This document shows positions 6,471 to 57,163 of a DNA stretch of 64,000 bases, one piece after another. The position numbers were made by a program, and so were the translations under genes. Origin of the DNA: Cyanidioschyzon merolae (Eukaryota); NCBI GenBank assembly GCA_000091205.1, contig AP006497.2. The stretch is one strand, 5' to 3'. Each line of letters starts with the position of its first letter. The first letter of the stretch is position 1. The notes beneath the pieces were generated by a model. The model had not been told where the DNA came from and made no database searches. It was given only the letters and a program-made list of their open reading frames with translations.

Positions 6471-7245
6471 CTCTCGGGCTCGAGTTGTACAAGGAAAAGC
6501 TGAAACTGATAGAAAGAGGCTCGTCAAAAAGGGATGGGAGGCATCTGCACAGGAGTTTTCATTTACTCTTCTTGGGCGTTGGACATAGTTTTGATTCACT
6601 GGCGATGATATGTCTAGTATAACTCTTTCGCTACACGCATGTTCCGAGAATTTCCGCGAATCCGGTTTTGTCCGTGATCAATTTTATGGGATCAAAATAC
6701 ATTGGTCAGATAAGAGAGCTTTTAGTTGGCTGCTAATGCTGAAGGTTCATTTGATCTCTTGAATGCAGCAGATTAGATGCTTATTTCATAAAACCTCTGC
6801 TGTAGATCTTAATTTCGGTGGGTTCTTGCGATGGAAATAGTGGAGTATGTTGTATCGAAACGGTATCCGCGGAGTGCCCAGTTGAAAGCTCGACGCTTGA
6901 TGGTAAGTTTTCGACGCTTTGAATTCGGCAGCTAGGGTCGTGAAAGAGTTTGTGCTGGAGAGAAAGCGCGCATATTCAGCGGAATGCAACGAGGCACAAA
7001 ACGCCCAGAGCCGACCATTGCAGAGATCGGAGGCAACTGAGCGTGAACGTGTTTATTCCACAAGCGCCTCTGTACTACAGCCTCAGGTGAGCGCTCGCTG
7101 AATTGCTCACTGGCGGCAGCATCTCATCGTATTTAGATGCCGTTGGATCGCAAGCGGGTCGCAGCGCCAGAATTGACTCCCAGAACGACGCCCAACTTGA
7201 GAACCTCATTTTGATTCAAGTTCAACACGGAAACTTTATGTACGG

Positions 7246-10321: not shown

Positions 10322-10490
10322 GAAGAATCCACATACACTCTTGTCTTGGGACGTATAGTCTCTGATCTCTGCCCTATCAAGTGGCACCAGAGGTTGTAGC
10401 GCATGCAAATCCACATACACTCTTGTCTCGGGATGTATAGTCTCTGGTCTCTGACCTATCAAGTGGCACCAGAGGTCGTAGCGCATGCAA
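10322..10490. repeat. Tandem repeat, about 84-bp unit x2
   Basis: The unit 'atccacatacactcttgtct.gggacgtatagtctctg.tctctg.cctatcaagtggcaccagaggt.gtagcgcatgcaa' occurs twice in direct succession. Confidence 0.8.
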
Positions 10491-14198: not shown

Positions 14199-14879
14199 TC
14201 TTTTCGAGTCAATCGCTTGAACGATAAGAACCGCACGTGAAAGCGTGTCCTGTTGGAAGTAATGACGCTCGCGTGCGAGACCACTGGACATGCAGCCGCC
14301 AGATGTCGGGGAACCAGGCGTTGGGCGAGGAGGCCTAGCGTATGGTGGAGACGCCACCAATGAGGGCCTTGATCAGATATAGCGACCGGGAGACGGACAC
14401 ACAGACAGCATGACTGACGGACTGACAAACCAACCGATCAACTGGCTGACTGAATGGCTAGCAGACTTACTGACTGACAAACTCGAGCAGAGCATGGGAT
14501 CACAGGTCTCATTGCCAACGACAACGACGCAGCAACATGCTCTATGCCTCGCTTTTCATTTCACCGGTTTTGTTGGATGGGTGGCACATTCCTGGAATCC
14601 CACACAAAGAGTGCGGCCAGCATGACCTGACTCTGGCACACGCTCTGCATCCATCGAGCGCTTGAGACCCCAGCCCACGCCAAAGATAAGTCATGCATGA
14701 AGACGTCACTTGTGCTCCAAAAGCAAATCGTGTTTTCCAGGACGCTGAAATTCGGTTTCCTGGTGTGCTTAAAGGCGCTGCAGCCTCGGGAGCTCGACGT
14801 GCTGAACCATACTCTACAGCTCGCTGTCAGAAATCCAGGATGTACGGTACTGCAGGGTGGACAAGCTTTCAAATTCGGG

Positions 14880-15070
14880 GCACGTTGCTGTTTTTCAAAG
14901 GATCAAACGCTGGATATCCAGTTGTCTAGGTCCAAAACCGGTCCAAATTCGGTGTACATCGCTGTTGTTCAAAGGATCAAAAGCTGAATATCCGGTTGTT
15001 TAGGTCCGAAACCATCCAAATTCGGTGTACATCGCTATTTTTCAAACGATCAAAAGCCGTGTATACAGTG
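14880..15070. repeat. Tandem repeat, about 80-bp unit x about 2.5, preceded by a short (ctga/gactga)n low-complexity tract at about 14400-14470
   Basis: The unit '...caaattcggtgtacatcgctgttgttcaaaggatcaaaagctgaatatccggttgtttaggtccgaaacc...' is repeated with minor substitutions. Confidence 0.75.
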
Positions 15071-15573
15071 ATGCAGGTAAAGCATGCCTCGAATCTGGTT
15101 CGCTTTGCTGTTCTGCAAACAGTCATTGATTGTGAGCAAGTGCAACAGCGTCGCCTCGGATAGACGCTTACGAAAGTGTCGTCCTTGATCTGAAACTGGG
15201 TTGGCATACGTATCGTAGACTTGCCCGGATGCGCCAGCGGGGCGCTCCCATCGACGGCATCAAGCTGCATTTAGTGAGCGTACGCTTTCGTCTGCATGAT
15301 TCAGGACTGGTGGATACGTTTGGGTATTCCCTTCCAAACGTCCTCAGCGACTTTTTCCATGAATACGTCCTAGCACATGTGCTCAAGAGGGCAGCCCCGA
15401 AGGGTCTGGCTAGAACTGCTGCACCTCATGCGTGCATGTGCCGCCGCCGAGCTCCCTTTCGCATACCCGGGAGAGAAGCCACAAACACACACACCGTTAT
15501 CGTCGTGCTTTTCGTTGCTCTCGTCAGCATCTTTGTAGCTTTATACAGTGCTGTCACCATGCAGACGAGCAAT

Positions 15574-17163: not shown

Positions 17164-18041
17164 AGAGGCAGTTTATTGAGAGTTATAGCGCACAAGGCGT
17201 GTGAAAACTGGCGGAGCGCACCGCAGGCGTCAGCGATGCGAAACAGCCGGTAAAGGACGCAGATGAATTCGTGGCCGCAGGGACGCGCAGCGCCATGGCG
17301 GCACGCTCGGACGCTGTTGCTACCAAAAGCAGGGGAAGCTCCATGCCGCAGGCCCTGGAGGGTTCCCCCAATGCAGCCCAGATGATGCACACCGTGCAGC
17401 TAGATGCACTCTTCTCCCATGCAGCATAGTCTTATCTTCCAGAGGTACATCGCACCGAAGCTGGTGTGGCGTCCTCGGTTGCACCAGCTGCGGGGCGACG
17501 TCTGCGAGAAACTCTTCAGTGCGTACGATTGTGGAATACTGAACGCACCTGGTTTCCATTTGCCAAAATGTCAAGACTGTCCAGGTATAATTCATGTGAA
17601 GAACAGGATATCCGTTTGGTTCATTCGAGGCTTGTCTCCGGAACGGCTTCGAAATGAGACCAATCATCGTGATCGGGGCAGATCTGTGGTCTCCATGTGA
17701 ATGGCGATACCTGCGGGCGGGGCTGTTGCAGCAGCTTGCAAAGAATGAGACGGTTCCGTTTTTGTAAATGCGTGTACAAGACGGGTCTCTCGCAGAGCTC
17801 GAGAACAATATCGCGTACGCTATCGTAGCGTGGTTGATCATGCAGGCATCGTGCGGATGCACTTCGCCCATCGAAAGACTTCGCTGCGCATATCCGTGCC
17901 GGGCAGGGGAGCAGAATGCTATCGATACTGGCTCGGTGTCCTCATTTGCTGCTTCGGCTTACGGAGGCAGTAGCGAATTGTGCACGGGATCGATGTTGTC
18001 GAAAAGAGCGCCTCTGCGATGAGGCGACCTGAGACATTGAA

Positions 18042-18199
18042 TTGATATCGGGCAAATCCATTCCCAGCGGGCAACTGGAAGTTCGACGCTCGGCAGCGGG
18101 ATCTCGTGGAAGGCAGTACCCGTAGCAGCGATTTGATATCGGGTAAATCCATCCCCAGCGGGCAACTGGAAGTTCGACGCTCGGCAGCGGGATCCCGTG
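18042..18199. repeat. Tandem repeat, about 91-bp period x2
   Basis: 'ttgatatcggg.aaatccat.cccagcgggcaactggaagttcgacgctcggcagcgggatc.cgtg' appears twice, 91 bp apart. Confidence 0.8.
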
Positions 18200-19390
18200 T
18201 ACGAGAAGGCCAAAGCACATGAGCACCCCAACGGGACAAGTCGCGAGCCACTCGCACGATTTGCCGCTGCAGCAAGGTCAGCGAATCGAAACAGAAGACC
18301 ATGGATGGGCGGAAGCTGCCCAACACAGCCAGGAATGTCTGCGTTTTTCTCCAGAAAACTCTAAAAGTTGCAAATCTCAGAACGGTTTGCGTATTTGTTG
18401 AACGCTTGGACGCCAACACGGATACGGGACGATTTTCGAGAGTTTCGCCTCAACGCATGTACTGGAGCCTCTGGACGGACAGCATATCCGCGCGAAGAGA
18501 TTCCATATGTTTCCAGAGACAAAAAGTTTACGTTGATCGGGGATCCCATATTGCGGAATGGGTATTGGCTGTCGGGAAAGTGTCCATCATCCTGCGCTAT
18601 ACTCCCAGATTCCATCACCTGTTCTCGGGTGTACTGGTCGTTTTCTACGTTCGATTTTGCACCGAGCCTGCGGTGAGAACCCGCCTCAGCGCTTATACCG
18701 CTAGAGCAGAAGCATCACGGAGACCGGACTGCTTTGTCATACCAGTGAGGGCGGCGACTCGAGGCAGGGTGCACCCCGCACGGAATCCGAGGACAGTATC
18801 ATTCTGGAGCCGACAATCTGCGCAGGCAGACGTACTGCCTGCGGCACCGCAAAGAGATGTGCTGGGAGACCACGTCGACTAGGGCGATGGCTGGGTGCAT
18901 CCGAACCACTCCTGTTCCCAGAATAAACCTGCATTGCGGACGAGCTGCTCAGGTCTCTTCACAGCACTAGGCACTGGGAAGAGCACGACGCACTTACATA
19001 GCAGACTCGGTCGGCACGCCGGACATTCCGCCTCGAAGGTAAACTTTCCACAATACGGAAACCTTTTCCCCCTTTTAACGCCTACTGTGAAGGTCGAACG
19101 AAAGTATCATCGAATTGCCAGTTAGTGTTTAGCTTCTGTTGTTTTTTCTATAGTGCGGTCGATACGCGCACCTCGATTCCTGGCAGGCATGACACACGAG
19201 ATGCATCTCGCAGTTGATGAGAAACGCGATCCTTTTTTCGCGTGTTGCTCTAGCGTACAAGATGTATTTGCCTGAGCGTAATACCAAAGTAAGTTTCCCA
19301 ACTGAATTGTGTTCCATTCCCAAATTAGTGTATTCAAGTGATTTTTCTCGGTTTATAGGAGACGCGTTCGAAGCGCGTTCATCGTCAGAA

Positions 19391-21600
19391 ATGGAAAATA
19401 CCAGAGCAAGTTATGGACATGGAAGTCGAGGATCCTGGAGGGCCGGTGTCGCCGGCTGCCGGAAAAATTAGGGAAAACAGTGGCGAGCAAAGAGGAACAG
19501 AAGAAGAAGAAGCCAAGCCAGGAGGACCGACATCAATGACTGCTAGAAAGACAACAATGCGACGAGTTGGTTGTGACAGCCTGTCTTCTTGGACATATCA
19601 CAGATCCGTGCAAGCCAAAGTTGCAAGCGGCCATCAGAAATCGTGTCATTTCGTACTCCCTGAGTATTCGAAATGCTTCTTCAGGACTAATGAATTTGGT
19701 GAGCAAGATATATCGCAGCGTGACAATTACGAAAACAGTCGAGATTCCGGAGGAATTTATCTACAAGAGCTTCATTTGTCACCTGATGGTTGGCACAAGG
19801 GAATCATCGAGGAGAAATGGGGGAGTGCACACCCTCCACGAAACCGACGGGGCAACAAAGTACCACAAGAGCCTGAAGAATCATATGACCATGAACCTCG
19901 AACGTTTCATGATACGCGCAGTGTTTGCGCCATACCCGGGAATCTCTCGCAAAGGAATATGGGCGACTATCAATGGCATCACGAACGATGGTCATCATGA
20001 AGATGAGATAGAATTCATCGACAAGAAGACGTCACACAGGAGCAAGAATGAAGCTTCTGTAATCCGTGCGCGTATTCAAGAGCGTCGTGGGTTACTGGGC
20101 GGGCGGATCCAACAGAAAAGATATCAGAGTTGAAAAAAAATATGCAAAGATACTATCGCCTCATCCTACGGTATTTCATGTTCCTGGATCGAGAACTCGA
20201 ACGCAAGGCAGAGGTGACGTTAAGTGGGGGAAAATGAAGAGTGGGAGAGACGGAAGGCTCTCCTAATAGGAGAGCGCTTCAAAGTCGTTCCGTTGTGGAA
20301 CATGAAGTCACATTTTGTGACTACCGACTCCAGAGTCCTTTACGGTATCATGGAGGTGATCAGTTCGGAGTTCGATGTAAGGAAGACAGAGTTCTCTGGT
20401 GAAACCCGGGAACGAACTGGAAGAATATCTTCGATTTCAAACGTCTGAAAGTAAGCAAACAAAAGGTATTCACTGGTATGATCGAAACAGATGGGGTAAC
20501 CATGTGTGTACACTATCGGTGCTTGAAGGTGGATCGCCCAGTTCCGCTCGTGACGAAGCATGAAGATGAGAAGGAGGCGGATCCTTCGACGCAGAAAGTG
20601 CAGGATAACGACTTTGTTGTTGGCGCGGACCCCGGGGAATATGAATATCATAACCAACGCAGCACCCAAGCGTGCGGAAGGTGGCATTGACGGTACCTTA
20701 CGTCAGAAAGACATGCGACTTTTCAGGTTTTCGAGAGCGAAATGCTATCTAGAAACGGGTAGAATGAATGCGAGGAAAAAAATCGAGAAATGGAATGCAG
20801 GAATGAGAGAGCACCTGGAAGCTGTGAGCGATGTGACGAGCCACGGAGCGGACGTTCAGGCTTTTCTGAAATTCATGGAAGTTCGCATATGGCGCACCGG
20901 GATGCGCTGTGGGAGGAGTATGCCAAGCCCCGGTGGGCTCGTTTGCGAATGAATCTATACGGTGGTAAGCAGCGGGCATTTGCGAATTTTTTCAATGAGT
21001 TGAGCTCCCTGAAGGAGGACGAGAGTCAGAGGCTGGTTGTAGCATACGGAGCAGGTCGCTGGATGATCCCGAACGAGACTACGCCAGCTCCAAGGACAAG
21101 AACGTACAAAGAGTGCGCATAGCGTTCCGGCACGATACCTGTAGATGAGTTCCGAACATCGTATACACACCATGAACTGGGGTGTATACTCCAGAGGGTG
21201 TAGATGGAAAAGTGTCAGCGGAGTCCTGAGGATATAGCAAAGTACGGAGCGCTGACGGAGGAGCAAATGGAAAGGGGGCGAAAGTTCGAGGACTTCTCGC
21301 ATTGGTACGTACAATCAATGGCAAGAAACGTATGGAGTTTGTGAACCGAGGCTTGAACGCCGCCATCAATATCAGGAGATGTGCGGTGCTGGAGACGAGA
21401 CCTCCAAAGCTGACGAGAGAGAATTTTGTGGGGGAACCTCTTATGGTCATATTATACGGCAAGAAGCTGGAACCACTCGTAGGTTGCCGGTCCAAAAAAA
21501 CCGGGAGGCGTCTGCACGTCAGTTGGACGCTTTTCGTCTGGGGCGCCGGTCGCCGCCACTTTTGTACACCGCCGGCGGCTGCGTTTTTCTTTAGAACGGC
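19391..21600 (+). mobile_element. Fanzor/TnpB-like element, copy C (degenerate; multiple frameshifts)
   Basis: Collinear homology to copies A/B across ORF fragments 19567..20133, 20224..20448, 20478..20690 ([11 protein letters not shown], a RuvC-I-like DPG motif), 20560..20952, 20790..21122 (LVVAYGAGRW) and 21302..21661 (KRMEFVNRGLNAAINIRRCAVLETRP). A 1-nt indel relative to copy B is visible at about 21270. The 5' end 'tatggacatggaagtcgaggatcctggagg' is shared with the 31.1-kb copy. Confidence 0.6.
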
Positions 21601-26531: not shown

Positions 26532-27954
26532 CCAGCAGCGTGATATAGGCTCTAGCGCCCACCAGGTCGGAACCGGCAGTAACTAGAATCCCCAGTACCT
26601 CTCTGGTGCTGAAGAGCGATAATCCGATTCCGGTACCGGGGGCGATCAGAGCGCAGCATTTGCTGCTGCCCGAGTCGAGGATCTCCTGCAGCAGCGCATG
26701 CGGCACCAAACCTGTTCACAGCGAAATGCATGCAGTATTTATGGGAAGGTAACCCCGCGCTCCGATTCCATCGGATATCACGAATTACTGCAAGCTATGG
26801 TGAAAACAGCTTGCGGTAAGGGAACGTCACGTACGGCGTTTGAATATCGGCATGATGTACAGGCTGAGTCATCGCATGGTGCACCAGGCGTGCTTTTTTC
26901 CGCACTGGTCGTGACGTCATTCATTGGCGCCGTGTGCATGGCAATGCATGCGTACACACAGGCGCGCATTTTCTATATACATAGACTCGAATGCGACACA
27001 TGCGTTCACTACTGATCGCTGTATACAGCGAGCACCAGCAGCAGCACTGGACTTGAGAGCGCCTAAAAAGAATAGAGACTAATCGCTAACTAGCTGCAAC
27101 TGTGCCGGAAGTACAAATACTAACAATTAAGTAGCTACTCGATAACAATTCCGTGCCACCTTCACGGTAAGCTTTGAAAAGGGAGCATTATCCCGTAATT
27201 TCGAAAGTTTACCTCATAGGCGGAGAGTCCCACCAGCCGGACGAATATGTCGGACCTGCGCTCCCTGCTGCTCCCAGACCCGAGTGCTGTGGCAAGACCT
27301 GTACAGATCGTCCATCACGCATTTCATTCACGGACTAGGAATGGGTAGGTTGCATCCAAGTGTCGCCCTGGTCGCTGTCGGCTTGTGGTATAGCGCTTCG
27401 CGTTGCCGCTGGCAGTAGGTCTGTCTGAGTAGCTTGCATGCACCCAGCATGATTATGGATCCCGATCCCGCACCATGCAAACTACACCTCCAGCCGATGC
27501 CCTCATCGATACCGTAAAGCGGTTCTGTCGCCCTAACGCATCTTCCCCAGCGGTATACGCGCTATTGCAGGTGCAGCAAGGCAGGCACTCGGCGCACGCT
27601 AGAACCTACGGAACGACAAGCGTATCCGAAAGGAACTCGCCGAAATGGAACGTGAATGCATGATGCATCATGATGGACGAGTTTCCGATTACCAATATCC
27701 ATCCCACAAACTGACATCCATGTACAAGTAAACGTTCTGACGAATGAGAAACATAGTCTTGAAAATGCTCCTCGACGGCGCCTGTGTCCAGATGATTCCC
27801 GCCAGGAGTGCGCAGCGCCGCAGGCGATCGTGATCCATCCTGCCTTGGACCATGGTATTCACTTTCCGCAGGCGGGGTAGTGTGTGCACAGTTTCAGGAG
27901 AGGCTGACGCACGTAGACGTTGTTTAGGGGAACTTTTGGCCGCGTTTAGGCCCT

Positions 27955-29781: not shown

Positions 29782-30229
29782 ACACGGCAGCATGAAATTT
29801 TCGGATTCAACTAAAATGTTCTTTTGTATTCAAGGGGGCAATGCGCTACGCTGTGTCCGATATGTAACCACGGAATGACGGATGATGCTGAATTGCTGCA
29901 TCTGATTGGATGTCACCGGAAAGGCAATTGCTGCTGACGACCACGGAGGATGCGTCGTTTCCTGCAAATACGACGATATTGATGGATGGTATCACAATGG
30001 GATAGCGTTTGGCGAAGCTGGGGACGCAGCGAGTCCTTTCTGATCCCAAGTCGCCGTGAATCCGGCGGTGCGTTCCTCGTAACCCGGTGATATGCTGCTT
30101 GTCGAAGTCTTGCGATTCAATTGGTAATACCTCTGTTGCGTCTGGTAGAATGCTTTTCGGCAGTGCCGAACATGAGATCGAAATCCCCATGAAATATACC
30201 GTATAGATCGCAGACGAATTGCCTGTAGG

Positions 30230-31035
30230 ATGTACGTTCCTTACTGAACAGTGCACAGAGTACTGCATTCCGTATTCAGGTCCGTCGTACCACAGAACTC
30301 AGATGGTTGAGGAACACGGAAAAAAAGAAGGATACGCGTTCCGCGTCAGCAACCGATATTCTAAAAGACTGCTTGCGGTCAATGGTGGTGGACGACCCAT
30401 TGATCACCGTACGAAAAGCAGAAAGCGACGATAGTTGCTATCGCGGGCGTATCTGAATCTCGCCAGCTTGTCGCTGTGCTCCTGAAAACACTGAGATGCG
30501 GTCGTAAAAAAGAATCCTAGTTCATGCACGATCAACTTCTGCTGAAATCGCAACTACGACACAGTCCCTGCAAGGTTACGATCGATATGAAGCACAGGGA
30601 CGTCGGTTCCTTTTTGCAGTCGACGAGACCTGCATCGAACGAAACCGTCGGCGCGTATATGGGTATTCGCAGCTAGGGAGCCCGTTGCGTATACGGATGA
30701 AGTCGAAGAGAACGAGGATATCATCTGTTCGATCTGCAGTGGATATATTTGGCGGCCTCAGACGCTTTCACGGAGAAGGCTCACGCAACGGCACCAACCA
30801 TTATGTCGAATCCTTGAGGACTTTTCCCTTGACGCCCAGCAACGCCCCTCTACTGGACAACGTGGCATTTCACCATTCTCTTTGGCTTCGAGCTTTTGCC
30901 GATTCCCGCGGGGCAGATCAGCTTTTCATTCCTCCGTACGCTCCGTGGCTCAACCGCATCGACGGAGTGTTTTCTATCGTGAAACGTAATGATCACTTTA
31001 CAGAGCGCATTGATGAATCCTTCAGGACACGGTGA
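30230..31035 (+). mobile_element. Tc1/mariner(IS630)-like DDE transposase remnant (frameshifted)
   Basis: HTH region (SKRLLAVNGGGRPIDHRT, homologous to 5442 LAVNGRKRPLDH), first catalytic region VDETCIERNRRRVYGY, third catalytic region and DDE_3 tail LLDNVAFHHS...LFIPPYAPWLNRIDGVFSIVKRN. Spread over at least 3 frames. Confidence 0.6.
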
Positions 31036-31136
31036 CACACCAGGGCACAGTACCTCGTTCGTCCACGTGTGCTTCTGCCTCCGGGACGCCCCACTCCCTG
31101 GGTCATATTGAAGTGCTTTCATCAAAGGAAATAGAA

Positions 31137-31623
31137 CATCTATGGGACAGGTATGGACATGGAATTCGGGAATCCTGGAGGCTCGGTCTAGCCGGGTGTC
31201 GGAAGAGAAACGGAAACATCCTCTTCTCGCCAACCAGCAAGCGAAGAAGAGCAAGTCGTGAAGAAGAAGAAGAAGACGAGGAAAAGCGGAGATAGGCGAG
31301 GAAAGTTGGTTGTCCGATGTGACGATGACGGGACTGTAGTGGCGCAGAAGGCGCAAGTTCTAGGAATCCTTGCATTGGTACGTTCCACCAACGGTATTGC
31401 AAGCATGGCGTTCGTAAACAAAGCCTTTAACGCTGCTATCAATATCAGACGATGTGCGGTGCTGAAGACGAGACCCGCGGAGCTTACGCGATCTAAATTT
31501 GTATGGCAGCCGCTAAGGCTCGAAGTGTGCAGGGATAAACCGAAACCGATAGCAGGTGGCAGGTCAAAATACGCTGGGAGGCGTCTACACGTCGGTGTAG
31601 ATACAGACACGCTATCGTCGTGA
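31137..31623 (+). mobile_element. Internally deleted (MITE-like) derivative of the Fanzor-like element: 5' about 190 bp joined to 3' RuvC-III module
   Basis: The 5' part matches the copy C 5' end ('tatggacatggaattcgggaatcctggagg', (gaa)n tract, 'gttggttgt'). It then jumps directly to the 3' module (ORF 31258..31623: ...AFVNKAFNAAINIRRCAVLKTRPAELTR...GRRLHV). It sits immediately downstream of the DDE remnant at 30230..31035. Confidence 0.55.
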
Positions 31624-31897
31624 AGCTTTTCAGGTTTCATCGATAAGGCATGGACATGCTCGTTGGTGGCAGGGAAAACCTCGCGAGACTTGCCGTGCGC
31701 ATGCTGGTGCGATCCGCTACTGCATGCGCCAGCAAGCACTTTATGAGCGCACTCACGGTCATGAGATCACGGAAGACCAGGATCCGCTACGACACGCGCC
31801 AGCAAGCACTTTAGAAGCGCACTCGCGCCCATGACAGGCCGTCATAGATCCGATTTCGACACCACTGGCGAGATTTCACGGGAATCGCCCAACTGGC

Positions 31898-32797
31898 TCA
31901 GGACTCGATGATCATCGTATCCGTGGATGCGGCACCAGTATCCACCGTGGATGCCGTCGTTGGTGCCGTCTGTGCTCGGAAGCCCATGTACTCTGCGTAC
32001 TTGGTTATGCCAGAATCATCATGGGACAAGTTGACCCAGCCATCGGCTTTGACATGATAAACGTTAATGTAGCCGCCGCTGTAAGCATCTCGGTGGGTTG
32101 CGTGGAAGATAGCGCGTCGGCCGAGCTCCGCAGCCTCAGCTGCATCCATGTCCCAGCGATAGAACTGGTCCAGAACTCCGTAAGCAAATGTTGAACCTGA
32201 CCCGACTGAGAATCGTGTCCCCCGTAAACGAACACCATCGCTATCGACGTAGAAAAGCTGCGGGCCGGTTTTATCCCAGCCCGCAATCATCGTGCCCATG
32301 GACAATCCCATGCCCTTGTATTCGTAAACGATATTGGCAAGAAGCTTGGATGCAGCGGCGACTGAGATCCGTTCCCGGTGCTGCAACTCGTGTAGACGAC
32401 ATCGCATTCCGAGATAGCGCTCCCAGAATGAGCAGTCGGCCGCGCCGCCCGCCATGGTGCCCAACAGATATGGATTGATCTCGATGATTTTCTTCACGGT
32501 ACCAGATCCAATGTATTGGCCCATAGACGCTCTCGAGTCGACGGCCACAATAATCCCATCGCGGAAGACAAACGCTAAAGTGGTTGTCCCGTGCAAAAAC
32601 TTCACCAAGGAGCTGTTCTGTTCGTCCCGTAGAACGTCCCGCAACCTCGGTGCGATGCTTGCTCCGCGAGGAACTCGAACTCGCCCAAGACTCAGGTCCA
32701 TGGGTGCAGCGGTGTTGTCACCGTCCGAGCTGGGGCATATGTCGCTCCCGCTGCACAACGAAAACGTCCGATCTAAAAACTCCAGCGGTGCGTACAT
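31898..32797 (-). CDS. PSMB5: 20S proteasome subunit beta type-5 (chymotrypsin-like, PRE2/PSMB5) with propeptide
   Basis: Propeptide junction LHGTTTLAF (mature N-terminus Thr follows Gly), then conserved beta-5 core ([48 protein letters not shown]). Confidence 0.9.
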
Positions 32798-45128: not shown

Positions 45129-47726
45129 TCAAAATGGAGATTCTGCACCCGATAGGGACGAGACGGCGTACATGCCTTCCAAGTCGGAGGCGCTCCACGC
45201 ATCCATGTTGGCTTCGTCGTCCTCCGCCGAGAGACGCAGATATTCGAGTGCTGCGAAGCGATCCCAGTCCGTTAGGTCGGGGACTGCCCGCTCCTGTCTC
45301 AAGAGTGATGGATCTCGACTTTCGATCGCGATGAACTTGTTCAAGTTGAACAGGATATTGAAGAAATGGCTCTGCATGCGACTGGATCGTAAAGCTGAAC
45401 GCGTGATCACCGGTGGATCAAGATCCTTGCTGATCATGTCCAGCAACTGACAGAGAATATCCTCAAATGCAACTGGTTCGTGCCCCAGACACTCCATTCG
45501 ATGCAGTTGTTCTGAATAGAGCCAATCAACATCGTACAGGGTGATCTTTCCATCGCCGTCCGCATCAATGCAGCGAAACCAATAATCCAAGGCCGTCTCT
45601 GAATTCTTGTCTTCCTCGCTGAGGATAAACCAGATGAAATCCGTATAGCTCATGTAGCCTGGGCGTGCGCAGTCGAGAGGCCTTCCTCGTCCACTAAAGA
45701 TACAGTCAATGATCCGGTAGGTCAGGGCGTGCCCGTTGTAGCGCAGCAGATCCTCGCGGTCGATCATGAGATCATGATCTGTGTCCAATTCCCAGAATCG
45801 ACAGTAAATCACGTAGAAATGCTCGTAGCTGAAACAACTACGCTCCTGGTTGATGTCCTCTTGTTCGTCGACGCTTCGAAAAATGTCCAAGAGACGATGT
45901 CGGCGGATATCCGACAGATACGCCTGCCCATTCGGCCGGTTCAGATAGTAGAATATCCGTTCGATGACTGTCTCAGCGTAGCGATGCTGGAACTCTGGGG
46001 TGGACTGCAGAAACTGTAAGCCGGGATGCGTCGCCAGCAGCGCATCAATGAAGGGTCGAAAGTCGGAACCAACAAGGTATCGGCGCTCATGTGCTTGTCG
46101 GTCGGCTCGATCCCGTTGCCCGTCGAGATTCCGCCGATTCGATGTCCATGAAGCTGCTGCAGACCTGGGCGAGATGCTGCTTCTTGGTGAGGATACGCTG
46201 TGAGCGTCGCTCTCCGTACGCTCCTCGTTCGGAACCGATGCGTGATAGTCACGGGAGCGTTGGAGTGCGTGGAAGAGGCGAGCGTGTCGATCGTAGCCGG
46301 CACAGTCCTCAACATACCATTGCAAGAATATGGACTGATGGATACGCTCACCCGTTGCCCCCGGGATGCTGATCTCCTTTGCGCCCTTCTTGTTCGTACC
46401 TTCTACCTCCGAAGCTACGTTGGACGTTTCGAAGTGCTGTTGGCGTTGGAGCAAGCGCTCGAAAATGACCAGCGAGACAAAGCTCGGCAACCCGACAATG
46501 TCCATAATGAGTTCAACGACCTCGCGCTGGCTCAGTGCTCCGTCTTGGCAATCAAAAGCGGCCTGTATGGCCTGTTGTTCTTCTGCAGCCCGGATGACGT
46601 GTTCGTGCGCGCGCCCATCTGGATAGTAGAAGCGCGGGATCGTCTCCGCCTTTGCGAATGCGCACTCTGATGGTACAAAGAGCGCATTCACCGCTGAACG
46701 CTTGTTCAGACCTCCTGAATGGAGCGCATTTCGCTGGTGTGCTGTCTCCTCACATGCAGGTAATGGTGGCGAGAACGATGCTCCATTCTCAGTCGAAGAG
46801 CCATCGTGGCCTACTCCCGAGTCCATATATGATGCGATCTCATGGCAACGCTCCTCGGTATCGGATTGACCATGTGCCATCGCCGCATCGCTATCCTCAA
46901 CTTCGGACCAGATCCTAAAAACCTCATACTTTCTGATGAAATGTGATACTGGCGACTGTGGGCTCGACGTCAAAGAAGCTTCCTCTGTGGAGCTACTCCG
47001 TGAACGGCCTTGCCTTGCAACGCGTGCTTCGCCACCAGCGGGCGAGCCCGGAGTTTGGCTCAAGATGCGATAGAAGGCGCTGCGCGCCGCTCCGGCCGGG
47101 GAGTTTGGCGTAATGGTATCGGCATTCGTCGGACGCTTTGCGGTTGCCCCGTGCGATGCAGCATTACACGAAGCTGTCGGGCTCGAAAGTCGTTCCTGGC
47201 GGAGCATGGTAGGCTTCGGTGAACCAGCAGTCACAAGATCTTCGTCGGTCACCCTTCCCGTGACGTCCAGTTTCCCCAGGACCTGCTCCAACCAAGCGAG
47301 CGTTTCCGGGAGAAACAACCAACGCATAAAGAGGTACTCTAAGTGCCGTTTCGGCTCTAGCGCAATATCCGTGGCCGATAGCGTCACCAGCAGTTTTGGT
47401 GCGTCCATGGTGCCGGAAATCGCGTGCACACCGGACTCGTCGCCCCCGGTAACAAACACAGCTGTAACCTCTATACCAGACTCTATGGTCTGCTCAGAGG
47501 ACATTATTGAAGCGTTCCTACGTAGATCACTCGAGCTGCTGCAGCTCAGCGGAGTCAGGCCGGGGAGATGTGTGCCAAGCCTCACCCGCTTGCGTCTCAA
47601 GACACGAGGCGAGACTGGAACGCACCTTTCAACTTTACAACCATCGCCAGAAGCCGTTCGAAAGTCGAACGACGTCGGGCGTGTACAGTAGTGGCGGCGA
47701 ACGCGCCCTAGACAAATCGTCTCCAA
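45129..47726 (-). CDS. Protein phosphatase 2A regulatory subunit B-double-prime (PR72/PR130/TON2-type, EF-hand containing)
   Basis: Conserved B-double-prime core: FYYLNRPNGQAYLSDI, FWELDTDHDLMIDREDLLRY, EF-hand DADGDGKITLYDVDWLYSEQ, FEDILCQLLDMISK. The N-terminal about 500 aa are low-complexity and Ser-rich. The first codons overlap the end of Fanzor-like copy A, so the true start is probably downstream. Confidence 0.75.
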   Translation of the reverse strand: METICLGRVRRHYCTRPTSFDFRTASGDGCKVERCVPVSPRVLRRKRVRLGTHLPGLTPLSCSSSSDLRRNASIMSSEQTIESGIEVTAVFVTGGDESGVHAISGTMDAPKLLVTLSATDIALEPKRHLEYLFMRWLFLPETLAWLEQVLGKLDVTGRVTDEDLVTAGSPKPTMLRQERLSSPTASCNAASHGATAKRPTNADTITPNSPAGAARSAFYRILSQTPGSPAGGEARVARQGRSRSSSTEEASLTSSPQSPVSHFIRKYEVFRIWSEVEDSDAAMAHGQSDTEERCHEIASYMDSGVGHDGSSTENGASFSPPLPACEETAHQRNALHSGGLNKRSAVNALFVPSECAFAKAETIPRFYYPDGRAHEHVIRAAEEQQAIQAAFDCQDGALSQREVVELIMDIVGLPSFVSLVIFERLLQRQQHFETSNVASEVEGTNKKGAKEISIPGATGERIHQSIFLQWYVEDCAGYDRHARLFHALQRSRDYHASVPNEERTESDAHSVSSPRSSISPRSAAASWTSNRRNLDGQRDRADRQAHERRYLVGSDFRPFIDALLATHPGLQFLQSTPEFQHRYAETVIERIFYYLNRPNGQAYLSDIRRHRLLDIFRSVDEQEDINQERSCFSYEHFYVIYCRFWELDTDHDLMIDREDLLRYNGHALTYRIIDCIFSGRGRPLDCARPGYMSYTDFIWFILSEEDKNSETALDYWFRCIDADGDGKITLYDVDWLYSEQLHRMECLGHEPVAFEDILCQLLDMISKDLDPPVITRSALRSSRMQSHFFNILFNLNKFIAIESRDPSLLRQERAVPDLTDWDRFAALEYLRLSAEDDEANMDAWSASDLEGMYAVSSLSGAESPF

Positions 47727-50195
47727 TTGCTGTGTAGACGCCTTCCCGTCTTTTTGGAGCGGCCGCCAACTACTGCTTCCAACTTTTTCTCATATAGTTC
47801 GACCTTGAGAGGTTGTCCAACAAAGTTCACTCTTGTCAACGCTGGAGGTCTCGTCTCCAGCGCCGCACATCTCCTTATATTGATGGCGGCGTTAAAGTCT
47901 CGGTTCACAAACTCCATACGTTTCGTGCCATCACTGGTTGTACTTACTGATGCAAGCAATCCTCGAACTTTCGCTCTCCTTTCCATTTGCCCTTCCGGCA
48001 GCGCTCCGTACTTTTTCGTATCCTTAGGGCTCCGCTGGCACTTTTCCATCTCCACCCTCTGGAGTGTACACCCCAGTTCATGGTGTGTATACGATGTTCG
48101 AAACTCATCTACAGGTATTGTTTCAAAACGCCGTGCGCGCTCCCTCTACGTTCTCGTCGTTGGAGCTGGCGTCGTCCTTTTTGGGTCTTCCATCGGCCTG
48201 CTCCGTACGCTACTATGAGCCTCTGACTTTTATCCTCCTTCAAGTCACTCAACTGATTGAGAAAGTTCGCGAACGCACGCTGCATCCCACCGTAGAGATT
48301 CATTCGCAAACGAGCCCACCGGGGCTTGGTATACTCCTCCCACAGCGCATCCCAATGGGCAACACGAACTTCCATGAATTTCCGAAAAGCATCAAGGTCC
48401 GCTCCTCGGCTCGTCACCTCGCTCATAGCTTCCAGGTGATCCTTCATTCCTGAATTCCATGTAACGATTTTCTTCCTCGCATTCACTATACCGGATTCTC
48501 GATAGTATCTCGCTCTCGAGAACCTCAACAGACGCATGTCTTTCTGACGAAAGTTGCCGTCAGCACCATCTTCCGCACGCTTGGGAGCAGCGATGGTGAT
48601 GATATTCGTGTTTCCGGGGTCCGCGCCAAGGACAAAGTCGTTATCCTGCACTTTCTGCATCGCAGGATCCGCCTCCTACTTTTCTTCATGCTTTGCCGCG
48701 TCAGCGACAAAGTCGTTATCCTGTACCTCCAGCGTCTCAGGATCCGCCTCCTTCCCATCTTCATCCTTCGTCACGTCAACGTTAAAGTCGTTATCCTGCA
48801 CTTTCTGCATCGTAGGACCCGCCTTCTTCTCATCTTCATGCTTCGTCACGTCAACGACAAGGTCGTTATGCTCCACCTCCTGCGTCGCAGGACCCGCCTC
48901 CTTCTTTGCTTCATCCTTCGTCACGGGCGCAGCCGAGGGCGGAACTGGCCGATCTTTCCTCAATGCCGATAGTGTACACAGATGGCTACTCCATCGGTTT
49001 CGATCAACCCAGTGAGTACCTTTTGTTTGCTGACTTTGAGAAGTTTGAAATTGAAGATATTCTTCCGGTACGCCTCCTGGTTTTCACCGGAGAACTCCTC
49101 CCTGCGAACATTGAACTCCAGACTGATCTCCTTCATAATGCCGTGAAGGATTCTGGAGTGGATGGACACAAAATCTGACCTTATGTTGCACATTGGAACC
49201 ACGTTGAAGCGCTTCCCCATTAGGAACGCCTTCCGTCTCTCCCGCTCTTCATTTCTTTCCTCACTCAGCTTCATCTCCGCTTTGCGTTCGAGCTCTCGGT
49301 CCAGAAACACGAAATATCGCAGGATGAGGCGATAATATCTTTCCTTATCTTTTTTCAACGCTGATATCTTTTCTGCTGGATTCGCCAGCCCCAAGACTGC
49401 ACAGTGCTCTTGTATAGCCGTACGGATTACAGAATCCTCATTCGTGCTCTCGTTTGACGCCTTCTTGTCAACGAATTCGATCTCATCTTCATGCTAGCGA
49501 TCTTTCGTGATGGCATCGATAATCGCCCATATTCCATTGCGAGATAGGCCCGGGTAGCGTGCAAACACGGCGCGTATCATGAAACGTTCGAGGTTCATAG
49601 TCAAATGCTTCTTCAGGTTCGTGAGCTACTTCATCGCCCCATAGTCGTAAATATTCGAGTCACCCTTGTATCGAGTACCATTGAATCTGTAAAAGGGATG
49701 TTTTTCGTGGAGGGTATGCACTAGCACATTTTCCTTCCGCGCTTTCTCTTTACGAAGCATCAGGTGTTGAATAAACGTCTTATCGATGGACTCGTCCGGA
49801 ATCTCGACCGTTTCGATCTGCGTCACGTCGCGATACATCTCTCTCGCCAAATGCATCAGTCCTGACGAAGCCTTGACAAGACTCTTGGAGTACGAGTCGA
49901 CACGGTTTTCGATTGCGTCTCGCAACTTTTCCCTGTACGGATCCTTGATATGTCCAAGAAGAATGGTTGTCGCCACCTTCTCGACGTACAGCCGTCTTTC
50001 TTGCCGCCTTCGACGTAGGGCCTCTCCCTTTAGGTCCTTCTTCGCTTCCTTGTCTTCTGGACTCGGCACAGTTTTCGTTTTTTTCTGGTAGTCGGCGACA
50101 CTGAGCCTCCAGGATCGTCGGCTTGCTGTTTCATAGCTTTTTTGTTTCTTTGAAAAACAACGCTCTTTGAAGGCTTCTGTTACATACAGCGACAA
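47708..50195 (-). pseudogene. TnpB/Fanzor-like RuvC nuclease pseudogene (about 650 codons over 4 frame-shifted segments)
   Basis: Homologous segments are in-frame and continuous in copy C (for example TLHETDGATKYHKSLKNH) but interrupted by TAG stops here (YGAMK*, KDR*). Confidence 0.6.
48617..48900. repeat. Coding minisatellite (about 69-nt unit, about 4 copies) inside copy A; single copy in copy B
   Basis: Repeated peptide module K[DH]EDEK[KE]AGP..Q.VQDNDF.VDVT (ORF 48676..48963). The corresponding stretch at 55880-55940 in copy B has one unit. Confidence 0.75.
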
Positions 50196-51149
50196 AACGC
50201 TTGACTAGACTTGTTTGAGGTTTGAACCACAAATGAATTAGAAAACTACACTTTGCTACGACCTGAACGGATATCCAATGTTTTACAGCTGAACAACACG
50301 TTACTGATGCCCACGACAGGGACCTTTACCACAATGAACGGAGGGGCGGAGGCAGTAGCAGCAGAAAATATTGACGATAATTCTGAGTAGTTATCCGCTG
50401 CTCCCGAAACAACGCTGCAGCTTCGGGCGCAAAATCTGGGTCCATCCTCGAGCTCGGGCTCAGTTTTACCTCCTTCTTCGGTTTCTACCTCAACTCTGGA
50501 AACAATCTCGGCGGATATTTTGGAAGACGGCTGGCGGTATGTTCGCGTTCGAAGCTGGAACGAACGACTTGCCCGCCTATGTGTTTGGGGAGCGGATACA
50601 AAGCCGCTGAAAGGTTGGTTCGTAGAGTATCCCCAGTGGTTGAGGGGAGCTTCATGTGTCCGGCAAGATAAAGGTCGCATTCGAGTCGACCTTGACTAAT
50701 GTACATCTGATTCTACGCTAGTGCGGCGCCAAGCACTCAATGAACGACTGGAATGCGGGAGGCGCTGGTGGCATGTACGCTCACACACCCCGTGGAGGGT
50801 GCATCTAAATTGACGACGTATCTCTGGAGTACCGCAGCGCTATTCCTATTCCGTTACGCGCTACAAATCGGTAGGTATTGCATCATGGAATATTTGTGGT
50901 GTAGCCTCGAAACTAGAATAAGAGATATCGAATTACTAGTAGAGTAAAGAGGATCAGATACAACTGAAGGACTCTACAAAAGGAAAAGCGATCCAACGAG
51001 ATACGGAGAAGGAGACACAGGAACCTCATGATCCACCTAGATGCAAAATAACCAGAGAAAGCAGCTCAGGAAAGAGCCCGAAGAAGAAGAAGACCAACAA
51101 GAAAAGACAGAAGAATAGAGAGAAGAACTCCCAAGCGAGCCCATCATGA

Positions 51150-53378
51150 GTGATCCCCCGAAAGAGCACCCCAGCAGGAACTCAAGAAAGCCGTCGCCAA
51201 ACCGAGTCACCTACTCACAGCGCTGAAGATCCGAAAAGCCGTGCGTACAAATCTTTAGACCAATTGGCACGCGAGTTTGTAGATGGGAATCAGAAGACTG
51301 CCAGAGAACTGGGACGGCTGGCACCAGAACGCAACAGTTGGAAACCGCAGTACCTGAAACGACGTATCAAAACTCGGATTGATGAATGCCACCGACTCAA
51401 TAAGATCCTCAACCGCACCGCCATACGCGCCAACGCCGGAGACAAGGAAGCGAAGGCAGCGCTACCGGCGCTACAGGCGCAACATGAGGAAGCTATCAAA
51501 AGAAAGAAGAAACTTTCCAGAGAAGACAAACGAGAGGATCGAAACCGCAAAATCGCCTCTCTGATGGAATCTACGCTAGAGAGCACCAACGAAGATGAGA
51601 CCTGGCGCTATATTCGATCGAGACTCGACCCACCGAAAAGTGCTTGGGGCTCACACCAACTGTTAAAAAGAAGAGCTGAGGACGGAGAGTGCCTCAGTGA
51701 ATGAGGCCTGGATAGACCACGGGAGAGAGCTGCATGAAGACGCAACTGGGAACTGCCAAGACCGAATCTATTGGCATCAGTATGCTGCAGAACTACCGCG
51801 CCTCAACCCGGTACCGGAATGGAACGACCCAATCTTCTGGCCTGAATCTGTTCGGACCCTGCTATGCTCAAGCAACCGCAAAACACCTGGCATCGACGGT
51901 ATCGCGACGGAGTGGATGAAACTGGCGACCCCAAAAGACGGGACAACAGGGACACCATCGATACCAGATGAACCTGACACAATCTTAGGCAAACGCCCTC
52001 TGGAGCTCATCCAACGCATGTTTGAAGAAGCATACATCCCTGATGTATGTAGGAGTGTTGAGGTCGTATCGATCCTCAAAAAGGACTCCCACATACACAG
52101 ACATGAACAACTACCGGACTATTCGCCTCATCCCGTCAATCATGAAGCTACTTTGCGCCATGCTCACGAACCGGATCCAGAGGGGCCTCGAGGAGCGCAA
52201 GTTCTTCGCTTCAGAACAGGCTGGATTCCGGAGTCGCGAGGAGTGCATGAGCCATGTCCTGACCCTCATCGGAGTGGCGCAACGTCGCTCCATTAGCGAC
52301 CAACAACCAGCTTACGTATGCTTCATCGACTTTCAAAAGGCCTTTGACACGGTCCCGCACGAGGCTCCATTTCTCAAGATGGAACGCGCCGGAGTCTCCG
52401 AAAAGTGCTTGGCGTTCTTCAGTGCGCTCTATGCAGACTCGTGGATGCGCATCCGACTGGGCGACAGCTCAAGAACCCCTTCCAGAAGAATCCGCCGTGG
52501 ACTGCGACAGGGCGACCGCGCATCCCCGCTCCTTTTCAACATCTTCATCAACGATCTGCTGAACAACGGCAGACAATTCGTGGCTGAGGCGCCGTGGATA
52601 GACTGTGGAGATGTCCGGTGAGGAGCCCTCAGATAGGAACCGCCTCGCAGGCCTTCTATTCGCGGACGATGTCGTGCTGTTGGCACCCACCCCGGAAACG
52701 CTTGCGGCTAGCATGGAACAAGTCAGCGCCTGGACCGATCGCTGGGAGATGAGCATAGGAGCATCGAAGTGCGGCGTCATGGTCATCCATGGAGACTCGC
52801 AGAGCATTCGCAATCGCTCGTGGCGGTTGCAGAATCAGGAAATTCCGGTCGTGGAAAAATATCGCTACCTGGGGGTCGGTCTCATGCTGACGCTCGACGA
52901 AAAGGCACACATCGACGAGATGATCGCCAAGATGCATAGAGGTACAGCGATCGCACGCCCATTCCTATCCGATCCCTCTATCTGCATAGCAATCCGTACG
53001 AGGGCACTAAGGATGTGTATCATCCAGCCTGCGACCTGGGGTGCTGAATTGTGCGGCATAAAGCACAAAAATGCCTCGCGTCTGCAGACAGCCGCCAACA
53101 GGGCAATGCGACTCGTTCGTGTTGGATGCTCAGTGCAGAGCAGAGCAACCAACCCGTTGACACTCGGACCTGAACTCCAAACACCATCGACAGAGGCGAT
53201 AGCAGCAGGCTTCCAGGCACGTGTGTGGGCCAAAGGGCCCATCATGCGCACCTGGTTCAGTCGGAGTTTCATGCAGACCCCAACGCACTCCAAGAAATCT
53301 TGGATGGAATCGACGCAGATTTGGTTGGAGCGCCACTTAGGCGAAAACACGCTCCCCAATCATTCCCCAGGAATATAG
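51150..53378 (+). mobile_element. Non-LTR (LINE-like) retrotransposon fragment: reverse transcriptase, 5'-truncated and frameshifted
   Basis: RT motifs across frames: KTPGIDGI (domain 1), YRTIRLIPSIMKLL, FIDFQKAFDTVPH, GLRQGDRASPLLFNIFIND, LLFADDVVLLA (the YxDD box in its FADD variant), and the thumb region ...YRYLGV. No endonuclease domain upstream; at least two frameshifts. Confidence 0.75.
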
Positions 53379-54477
53379 AAGGCTCCCGCCGCCTCTAGCG
53401 AACGGTCCGAACAACCATATGGGAATTTAGACAAGGTACCAGTCGCGCAAGTAACGCCGGCTTGACCCTATCCGGAACTACACCCTAGCATACACATGCA
53501 AGTACTGGTAGGGGGTGCTGGAATTCCCGGGACTTGCTCGAGGTACCCAGTGGCTCGCCAAAATCCGCGTTGGTGGCTTCCGGCTGGCAGCACCGGCTCT
53601 AAGCCGGAAAGGAGCACTGGAATCGCACTGGGAATCACACTGTCCCTGCTGTGGAGACGAGAGCCCCCGAGAAGCTGACGCATTTACTGTTACAGTGCCC
53701 GCGCTAGAATCAGGAGCGCAGCGAGCTCCTTGAAGGACAGCAGCAGCTGGGCATCAGCGTGATAGTGGAAGGCCGGACACTCATTCTGAGTGTAGCACTG
53801 GCAACTGATGGTCCGCTAACCGAGCCGCAGCGCTCGTTAGTGGCGAACAAACTCACATTCTACCTTCTAAGCGGCAGGTCCAACGAATCGGATGAGCACA
53901 CGGGTTTAGTGCTCTTTGTGCCTGCCTACTGGCGGGTGTCAAGCACAAACCCGCATTGCCGACCGACAACACATTCAATGCATGATCACGAAGGAGAGAG
54001 GCGGCTCCCAGGATTCATCCTAACAGCCAAGTTTCTCCAGCGTGTCGTGCAGCGAAGGTAAGACTGCATTTGCAGACTCGCTGAGCATATATCGACGAAG
54101 AGACCCGATTCTACGTCGGGTGAACCACGCCTCGAGCCGACGCCCTCTGTGGTATAGCAACGCCGTTCTGTCTCTATGAGCTATCTGCTCCAGCATTTAA
54201 GGTGCAAAGGCGAATACGGAGCGGCAGCTACTAGGCACACACGATAGGACGTATGAAACGACCAGAATATCTGAGATGAAGCATAGGTAATCTAACTTGG
54301 AGGCAGGTGCTTCATCATGGACGCTTTCCCGAAAGCCATTATCCATTCCAAATTCTGGGATCCATGGTCAATGGAAACGTCTTGTCAATAACAAAAAAAC
54401 AAATTGCGCTCGGTGGGCGCACCTCGGAGATCGGGAAGTCAACTGACACGACGCGCATGCCGCCGTAGAAGGGTAAC

Positions 54478-56890: not shown

Positions 56891-57163
56891 GCGGGAAGCA
56901 ACGTCTTTCTTTTGAAAGAGGTTTGTTGTTGCTGGTGGCGGTTGTGCATCTTTATATCCTGGATCGTGTCAGCGATCTCACACGGTACAAAAGTTGAAGG
57001 GGTGCAACACACGTACAGCTTCTCTGTCTGGGCACGTGCAACGCTCGAATCCTGGCGGCGCTCTCGAGACTGATAGAGAAAGCCCGCTTGTGAGGTATGC
57101 TCGGCGCTTGTTTGATTCGCGCTCTTACCCTGCGCAGGAAGCCGTGAACAAAATACTGCTGGC

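Follow-up and report, generated by a model that had tools for sequence, protein, structure and literature searches.

Transposons of the Mariner type that carry a transposase gene together with a Fanzor1 gene have been known since 2013, when PUl-1 and PUl-2 were described from Pythium ultimum and PGv-1 from Phaeocystis globosa virus (Bao & Jurka, PMC3627910), and associations of 'Fanzor1c' with a transposase have since been reported (Jiang et al. 2023, PMC10530073). The earlier study also described CMe-1A, a Fanzor1 family of Cyanidioschyzon merolae with a 3169-bp consensus and ∼150 copies that are ∼80% identical to it; the family was listed as having no terminal inverted repeats, a target-site duplication that was not determined and an unknown class, and its first 635 bp are a separate repeat of ∼635 bp, TE-N2_CMe, also of unknown class (PMC3627910). 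We found no link between CMe-1A and any transposase in the literature that we searched. Here we analyze 64,000 nucleotides (nt) of C. merolae contig AP006497.2 (assembly GCA_000091205.1), hereafter the window, which contain at 30105-31642 an element, designated copy E, that joins a dead transposase gene to pieces of a Fanzor1 gene. We conclude, with a probability of about 80%, that copy E is a dead and ancient copy of a Tc1/mariner-IS630-type cut-and-paste transposon whose ancestor carried a transposase gene and then a Fanzor1 gene. A sequence-only reading of the same DNA had suggested that a composite of this order might be the local family itself or its source, and had noted, correctly, that Tc1/mariner elements are known to have captured Fanzor1 genes.

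The family resembles PUl-1, PUl-2 and PGv-1 in having the transposase followed by Fanzor1 on one strand, in a DDE_3 transposase of the IS630/Tc1/mariner superfamily and in an overall size of ∼3-3.6 kb; its intact relatives L057, L058 and L063-65 also have short terminal inverted repeats and a TA duplication. It differs from PUl-1 in its transposase clade, with 30% identity over the catalytic core (E = 9e-14) and DD34E rather than DD43E spacing, and unlike the described Mariner-type Fanzor1 elements the window copy is dead and has lost ∼580 Fanzor codons. The Fanzor sequence in and around copy E is of the CMe-1A family, and TE-N2_CMe is also present in the window; unlike CMe-1A, which has no transposase gene, copy E has a transposase, Tc1-like ends of its own and only two short Fanzor pieces. 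What is new here is a red-algal member, derivatives from which Fanzor has been deleted, and a class for CMe-1A, the kind of element itself having been known since 2013.

Structure of copy E

Copy E is a single 1.54-kb element with its parts in the order 5' end, transposase gene, Fanzor1 pieces and 3' end:

30105-30193, plus strand: 5' terminus and short leader, with the Tc1-like inverted repeat AAGTCTTGCGATTCAATTGG... (family consensus CAGTCTTTCAACTCAATTTTGTTTCACCCC)
30194-31100, plus strand: dead IS630/Tc1-type DD34E transposase gene, near full length, matching Pfam DDE_3
31101-31340, plus strand: Fanzor1 leader (∼50 nt), ATG at 31153 and ∼75 N-terminal codons, with a frameshift within a GAA-rich run
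31347-31596, plus strand: Fanzor1 C-terminal remnant of ∼85 codons, equivalent to CMe-1A 2840-3092, the RuvC-III region
31597-31642, plus strand: 3' terminus (family consensus ...GGTCGTGAAACATTTTTTGTTTCACTG), unlike the 3' end of free-standing CMe-1A

Both boundaries are set by paralogy: 11 paralogous copies start aligning exactly at the 5' boundary, their upstream flanks being unrelated, and 10 copies can be aligned up to the 3' boundary and diverge beyond it.

Judged from its DDE_3 match, its DD34E spacing and the N-terminal helix-turn-helix, the transposase relic belongs to the IS630/Tc1/mariner superfamily. Positions 30235-31032 translate in one frame into 266 amino acids (aa) with two internal stops only, and contain FAVDETCIE, LLDNVAFHHS and LFIPPYAPWLNRIDGVFSIVKR; the relic matches Pfam DDE_3 with E = 1e-12 (48.6 bits; cut-off 28.6). 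The decayed DDE_3 transposase that the sequence-only reading had seen at 30230-31035 is thereby borne out along with the motifs it quoted, and the gene proves larger than had been given (30194 to ∼31100). Its limits were set by comparison with intact relatives and two paralogues. The open reading frame (ORF) begins at 30194, where the start ATG has become ATA (copy D retains an ATG at 5267, followed by MYSID), and homology continues past the TGA at 31033 to ∼31100, where 'HTRA' aligns with the C-terminus of the relatives. In a search of 5.8 billion proteins, the relic was found to span 98-99% of intact transposases of 292-300 aa, which carry HTH_Tnp_Tc3_2 (PF01498) and DDE_3 (PF13358); D140, D217 and E252 are invariant in 19 relatives, giving the DD34E spacing. 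A consensus of copies D and E and a third paralogue, F, is 44% identical to the intact transposase P0032 over 284 aa. In copy E itself the third catalytic residue is D in place of E, the gene is interrupted by in-frame stops and a frameshift close to its 5' end, and the longest open stretch is 175 aa. Neither the conceptual transposase nor the conceptual Fanzor protein matched a PDB sequence in phmmer searches, and the transposase alignment, when run against viral contigs, produced one truncated match that was uninformative.

The two Fanzor pieces were identified by comparison with the CMe-1A consensus and with copy A, a CMe-1A element elsewhere in the window. Positions 31145-31216, which span the Fanzor leader, the ATG at 31153 and the first codons, are 78% identical to CMe-1A 898-968, and 31110-31204 align with copy A at 19370-19464, upstream of and into the start of its Fanzor-like pseudogene. 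The C-terminal remnant, 31347-31596, is 71% identical to the consensus over 255 nt (blastn, E = 1e-29) and 56% identical to Fanzor protein residues 663-747 (tblastn); 31340-31596 align with the 3' end of the copy A pseudogene. The presence of Fanzor pieces downstream of the transposase had thus been recognized rightly, but what had been called a 5' terminus is the leader of a Fanzor gene with its N-terminal codons and not the left end of a free-standing element. Likewise, a RuvC-III module is present as had been stated, but its motif is not intact, as it reads NKAFNAAINI (NAAINI at 31429-31446) against NRDFNAAINI in intact copies and has lost the catalytic aspartate. CMe-1A ∼1100-2840 is missing, and with it RuvC-I, RuvC-II and the zinc-ribbon region, which leaves the catalytic set incomplete, and Fanzor homology stops at GRRLHVG, five codons short of the Fanzor stop. 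After the loss of ∼580 codons the locus holds a Fanzor remnant and not a Fanzor gene, and both genes of copy E are inactive.

Composite repeat family

The consensus transposase of copies D, E and F was used to scan JGI metagenomes and found 33 loci in 12 distinct groups. One group (L034-L036 and L039) is copy D of the window at 99.3% identity, so the scanned loci sample the same organism. With extra copies found in the flanks, 18 transposase copies were available, and in 14 of them Fanzor C-terminal sequence follows ∼100-330 nt downstream at the same junction and in a consistent order, the linkage that had been proposed as a test of the composite. The four exceptions are copy F (L012a), which is truncated by TE-N2_CMe, one further truncated copy, one very divergent copy, and one partial copy that has, at a contig end, another part of a divergent Fanzor downstream of it. 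Any two composites share 66-72% identity over 1.3-1.47 kb, and the composites have sharp 5' and 3' boundaries in common with unrelated DNA outside. Because their similarity starts and stops at identical positions within unrelated flanks, the composites must have moved as units.

A companion locus in the window had been noted at 5290-6470, and it is homologous to copy E throughout, the two being alignable end to end at ∼70% identity:

5200-6601, plus strand: copy D, second deletion form, with a transposase relic, the Fanzor leader and CMe-1A 2737-3092 (RuvC-III RRDQNAAINI)

The composites fall into two types by the Fanzor sequence that they keep. Type 1 (E, L016a, L020, L021, L029b) retains CMe-1A 869-971 and beyond together with 2840-3092, its consensus being 78% identical to CMe-1A 869-971, and type 2 (D, L022, L029a, L030, L033a, L037a, L041) retains 869-894 together with 2737-3092. 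These parts are not nested and neither type could have given rise to the other; the ancestor common to both therefore had a larger portion of the gene than either. The retained Fanzor tail has the same pairwise identity as the dead transposase region and gives no sign of selection.

A second, divergent Fanzor lineage, 24-36% identical to the intact protein P0001 described below, is represented in the window at 2014-2412 (minus strand) and in metagenome loci L021 (9385-9816), L033 (569-1000) and L037 (8484-9175). In L037 the contig ends with Fanzor residues 479-564 downstream of a partial transposase (residues 166-274), which may represent either a third form of deletion or a second family of composites.

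Free-standing Fanzor copies

When the CMe-1A consensus, taken from the supplement of PMC3627910, was compared with the window, three copies (A, B and C) were 85-90% identical to it, as against 71% for the remnants in D and E:

18518-21600, plus strand: copy A, full-length CMe-1A element, 80-86% identical to the consensus over its full length, with a pseudogene at 19282-21600
54406-56918, plus strand: copy B, CMe-1A pseudogene (54484-56916), 86% identical to CMe-1A 649-3166
47653-50308, minus strand: copy C, CMe-1A pseudogene (47653-50311), an inverted duplicate of copy B at 97-99% identity
27109-27739, minus strand: solo TE-N2_CMe, 75% identical to CMe-1A 7-635

In copy A, 18518-19145 is TE-N2_CMe, and the Fanzor ATG at 19413 is preceded, at a distance of ∼90 nt, by an inner Tc1-like 5' repeat; copy B has two nonsense codons and two frameshifts. 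The Fanzor content of the window is made up of these three long pseudogenes, the two remnants in D and E, and the divergent fragment at 2014-2412. The matches to CMe-1A and TE-N2_CMe by themselves point to C. merolae or a near relative as the source of the window. A protein search found 31 close Fanzor relatives, all in JGI metagenomes, including an intact 752-aa ORF, P0001.

The free-standing copies, of which we compiled 11 (A, B, C, L001, L028fz, L045, L047, L052, L053a, L053b and L055), share the 5' end of the composites. They carry, for example, ACAGTCTTTCAGTTCGATTGCGTTTCACACCTC ∼90 nt upstream of the Fanzor ATG, where the composites begin with the consensus CAGTCTTTCAACTCAATTTTGTTTCACCCC, and the match runs through the leader to '...TTTTTCGCAGTATATAACAGAAG', just short of the start of the composites' transposase ORF. 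CMe-1A 786-862 is colinear with the composite 5' repeat and leader, 786-817 being 81% identical to the type 2 consensus (blastn), and the composite 5' end matched the free-standing copy L029 (1759-1853) with E = 4e-8 (nhmmer). Similarity to the composites resumes ∼36-55 nt ahead of the Fanzor ATG, so that the transposase segment of ∼950 nt is a clean indel between CMe-1A ∼862 and ∼869. No repeats belong to this segment itself, and deletion is therefore the preferred reading of why CMe-1A is without it. Comparison of the termini, which had been suggested as a way to tell a composite from a nested insertion, came out in favor of the composite, as did that of linkage, and gave a common 5' inverted repeat and leader, with 3' ends that differ.

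The intact family member P0001 is a Fanzor1 by both homology and fold. An exhaustive HMMER search returned 1232 relatives, and D484, E656 and R724-D725 are invariant in an alignment of 41 Fanzor sequences. The profile of this alignment matched the solved Fanzor1 proteins PpFz (9cf0, Parasitella; E = 6.7e-22), SpuFz (8gkh, Spizellomyces; E = 5.6e-12) and GtFz (9cer, Guillardia; E = 1.5e-5); only this profile worked, a profile of nine sequences having given no match in the PDB. PpFz, SpuFz and GtFz were also the top seven PDB matches (Foldseek, E = 1e-16 to 4e-14) of an AlphaFold model of P0001 made with the alignment (predicted local distance difference test score, pLDDT, 79.7), the single-sequence model being unusable at a pLDDT of 32. 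Pfam searches with pieces of the Fanzor ORF and with the intact P0001, P0002 and P0031 gave no match.

An intact 752-aa ORF of CMe-1 type occupies 10001-12259 of L001, a metagenome contig of 49 kb on which its neighbors are ordinary host genes; coding capacity has therefore survived in at least some members of this old family, in line with Bao & Jurka (PMC3627910). The linker between the N-terminal half of the protein and RuvC-I contains a 75-nt tandem unit in the window copies (48624-48923, 20549-20635 and 55870-55949); P0001 has more copies of this unit, which encodes an acidic, lysine-rich sequence, and the model is disordered there (residues 374-470, pLDDT <50).

TE-N2_CMe (27109-27739, minus; 18518-19145, plus; 54104-54387, minus; L002 738-1354) adjoins Fanzor or transposase elements in three of four cases and in both orientations, and at locus F it stands in place of the transposase C-terminus. 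The repeat found beside copy A and after the truncated transposase copy F was considered as part of the composite and rejected, as it is TE-N2_CMe. The idea that the outer sequences of CMe-1A are a host repeat invaded by a Tc1-like Fanzor element was likewise rejected for now, with no empty or solo copy in ∼0.5 Mb. Copies C and B lie head to head, their spacer (50312-54483) holding a reverse-transcriptase (RVT_1) element at ∼51150-53378, and other head-to-head pairs are the two Fanzor copies in L053 and a Fanzor that faces a transposase composite in L027-L031.

Intact transposase-Fanzor1 elements

All four of the closest intact transposase relatives that were examined have a Fanzor1 ORF of the same family 50-224 nt downstream on the same strand:

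P0032, in L057: gap of 224 nt to a Fanzor ORF of 624 aa
P0034, in L058: gap of 54 nt to a Fanzor ORF of 627 aa
P0038, in L060/61: gap of 50 nt to a Fanzor ORF of at least 546 aa, where the contig ends
P0051, in L063-65: gap of 53 nt to a Fanzor ORF of 631 aa with a weak Pfam match to Cas12f1-like_TNB

The loci come from SRR32481250 (L057), JGI 3300078403 (L058), SRR13287422 (L060) and SRR32903057 (L063). The L057 ORF matched the Fanzor family profile with a probability of 100 and E = 2e-158 (hhalign), and the L058 ORF is 38% identical to P0001 in its RuvC half. Three of the four elements (L057, L058 and L063-65) could be delimited, and each has inverted repeats with TA at both outer ends; L060/61 ends before the 3' end is reached. 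In L064 the element occupies 417-3471 (3055 bp) and reads ta|CACTTTGACAACTGAATTTTGCAACA ... TGTTGCAAAATTGCCTTGCACGAGTG|ta, and it recurs in different flanks in L063 and L065; the elements of L058 and L057 span 352-3426 and 5-3380. The terminal repeats are 28-34 nt long and 71-82% identical in L057 and L058, and 26 nt long with 7 mismatches in L063-65, and the 5' repeat consensus of the window family matches the L063 repeat at 19 of 30 bases. In the intact relatives a stretch of 125-250 nt separates the Fanzor stop from the 3' repeat.

Some of these elements lie in tandem. L063 1-5770 contains a complete element and then a second transposase and Fanzor; in L058 (3399-3456) a 3' repeat and a new 5' repeat are separated by one TA only, and this locus has two copies of the 3' repeat (3351-3380 and 3401-3428).

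Discussion

Linkage in 14 of 18 copies, deletions that are not nested, the composite 5' repeat in CMe-1A and the intact relatives elsewhere together support a composite element with the transposase followed by Fanzor, so that the proposal made for the local family from the window alone has held up. The ancestor would have been an element of ∼3 kb, consisting of TA, an inverted repeat, a gene for a DD34E transposase of ∼295 aa, a Fanzor1 gene, an inverted repeat and TA, and it would have been present at full length in the C. merolae genome; other organisms have intact relatives arranged in just this way. Its transposase would have bound the terminal repeats, excised the element and reinserted it at TA, in the window family as in its relatives, and Fanzor1 may, by analogy with TnpB and the characterised Fanzors, have cut DNA with a guide RNA encoded near the 3' end and so have aided persistence of the element. 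One internal deletion would have left a transposase with a mini-Fanzor, in which the leader and ∼75 N-terminal codons are joined to ∼85 C-terminal codons (the kind of copy E); a second would have left a transposase with the leader and ∼120 C-terminal codons (the kind of copy D); and a third would have produced a Fanzor-only form without a transposase gene, which is CMe-1A. The first two kinds would have kept both ends and the transposase and been amplified, long ago, as units of 1.4-1.5 kb.

Internally deleted derivatives of DNA transposons, such as defective P elements and Ac/Ds, keep both termini and continue to be amplified. Unlike these, the copy E lineage would have lost its passenger, Fanzor, and kept the transposase, while the sister lineage did the reverse; passenger-deleted and transposase-deleted sister lineages would thus be documented from one composite. 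The reading would also provide a likely origin and superfamily for CMe-1A, the main DNA repeat of the very compact Cyanidioschyzon genome, which was published in 2013 as unclassified. The intact elements L057, L058 and L063-65 form a clade of compact (∼3.05-3.4 kb) and apparently intact transposase-Fanzor1 elements in public metagenomes, with defined ends and a 125-250-nt stretch where a guide RNA is expected, and they are more useful than the dead locus for studying the role of Fanzor in a cut-and-paste transposon or for the mining of tools. The general picture is unchanged, capture of Fanzor1 by Tc1/mariner elements being already established.

Several observations weigh against a composite Tc1-like ancestor. 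In the sampled DNA of C. merolae no copy was found with both a transposase and a full-length Fanzor, every transposase copy of the family is degenerate (the longest open stretch among all copies is 193 aa, and none is intact), and none of the 11 free-standing Fanzor copies has a transposase in its fetched flanks. The consensus ends of the window family, CAGTCTTTCAAC...TGTTTCAC and GTGAAAC...GTTTCACTG, match at 18 of 28 positions in a hand alignment; such terminal repeats are visible only from multi-copy consensuses and the intact relatives, and blastn with single copies, both for inverted repeats and for composite 5' ends against everything else, gave nothing significant. A TA stands before the 5' end of 4 of 11 copies, while at the A-rich 3' flank A followed by another base is usual instead of TA, and TA duplications were not recovered for the window family, the copies of which have diverged by ∼30%. 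All free-standing copies have ∼137 nt outside the inner 5' repeat, and their 3' end differs from that of the composites after GRRLHV, over the last ∼45-75 nt; neither of these outer pieces was seen alone in the ∼0.5 Mb examined. Because of these extra outer ends, the present mobile unit of CMe-1A is not simply Tc1-like.

In the literature the Fanzor guide RNA is placed in the region between the Fanzor stop and the 3' repeat (PMC10530073). Copy E is without the terminal 77 nt that follow the shared segment in CMe-1A, and it has no spacer between the Fanzor remnant and its 3' end, against 125-250 nt in the intact relatives. An Rfam search for a guide RNA found nothing, and RNAalifold found no supporting covariation among the 3' ends of ten CMe-1A copies (covariation term +1.78). 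The guide-RNA module that the sequence-only reading had imagined at the 3' end of the locus therefore finds no support in Rfam, RNAalifold or 3'-end comparison.

Of the other explanations, the likeliest, improbable as we hold it to be, is that a Tc1-like element with a transposase only took up pieces of Fanzor, for example through template switching during gap repair, and that its lineage never had a complete Fanzor. This would suit the tailed copies, which show Fanzor fragments only in 14 of 14 cases, and the composite 3' end, which is unlike that of CMe-1A. It does not readily account for two forms that retain different and non-nested portions of the gene, in one order and joined to the transposase at one shared junction, nor for CMe-1A, which has a full ORF between the same leader and C-terminal segment and bears the composite 5' repeat as well; moreover, the closest intact transposases all precede a complete Fanzor1 gene.

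The composite origin could be extended by supposing that the reciprocal deletion lineages are the two halves of a split and mutually dependent system, with the composites supplying transposase in trans to CMe-1A, which still has the 5' repeat of the transposon, and CMe-1A supplying the Fanzor nuclease in trans. The ∼250-nt Fanzor 3' segment found in every transposase element would then have been kept as a cis-acting site or as part of a guide RNA. We regard such a system as unlikely; if true, it would explain how a 'non-autonomous' family has retained intact Fanzor ORFs for so long, which puzzled Bao & Jurka (PMC3627910).

Somewhat less likely again is the reverse direction, in which a Fanzor-only CMe-1A of another superfamily is ancestral, a transposase gene entered its leader, and the derivative later gained new and shorter ends. 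CMe-1A does have outer ends of its own without terminal inverted repeats (PMC3627910), and intact ORFs persist in it while all transposase copies are dead. The transposase segment, however, has neither repeats nor TA of its own, and a lone ORF cannot insert itself; the inner CMe-1A repeat is similar to genuine terminal repeats, those of intact transposase-Fanzor elements, in which, among four independent relatives, the same linkage is found. Chance nesting, in which two unrelated elements landed side by side and the pair was spread by segmental duplication, might be entertained in a window so rich in repeats with nested and inverted copies, but it is already contradicted by at least 14 copies with the same junction and outer boundaries and unrelated flanks on both sides, and by the same gene order in unrelated organisms.

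Other features of the window

The surroundings of copy E are eukaryotic-looking and intron-poor, with long single-exon genes on both sides and a GC content of ∼0.53; a proteasome beta subunit gene lies nearby at 31898-32797 on the minus strand. Between the 3' end of the element and this gene there is a 54-nt direct repeat (31711-31764 and 31781-31834, 85% identical, 70-nt spacing), which is outside the repeat family. Short tandem arrays were found at 62090-62541, 63633-63866, 14870-15086, 10326-10489 and 18039-18199, with units of 114, 117, 74, 82 and 91 nt, respectively.

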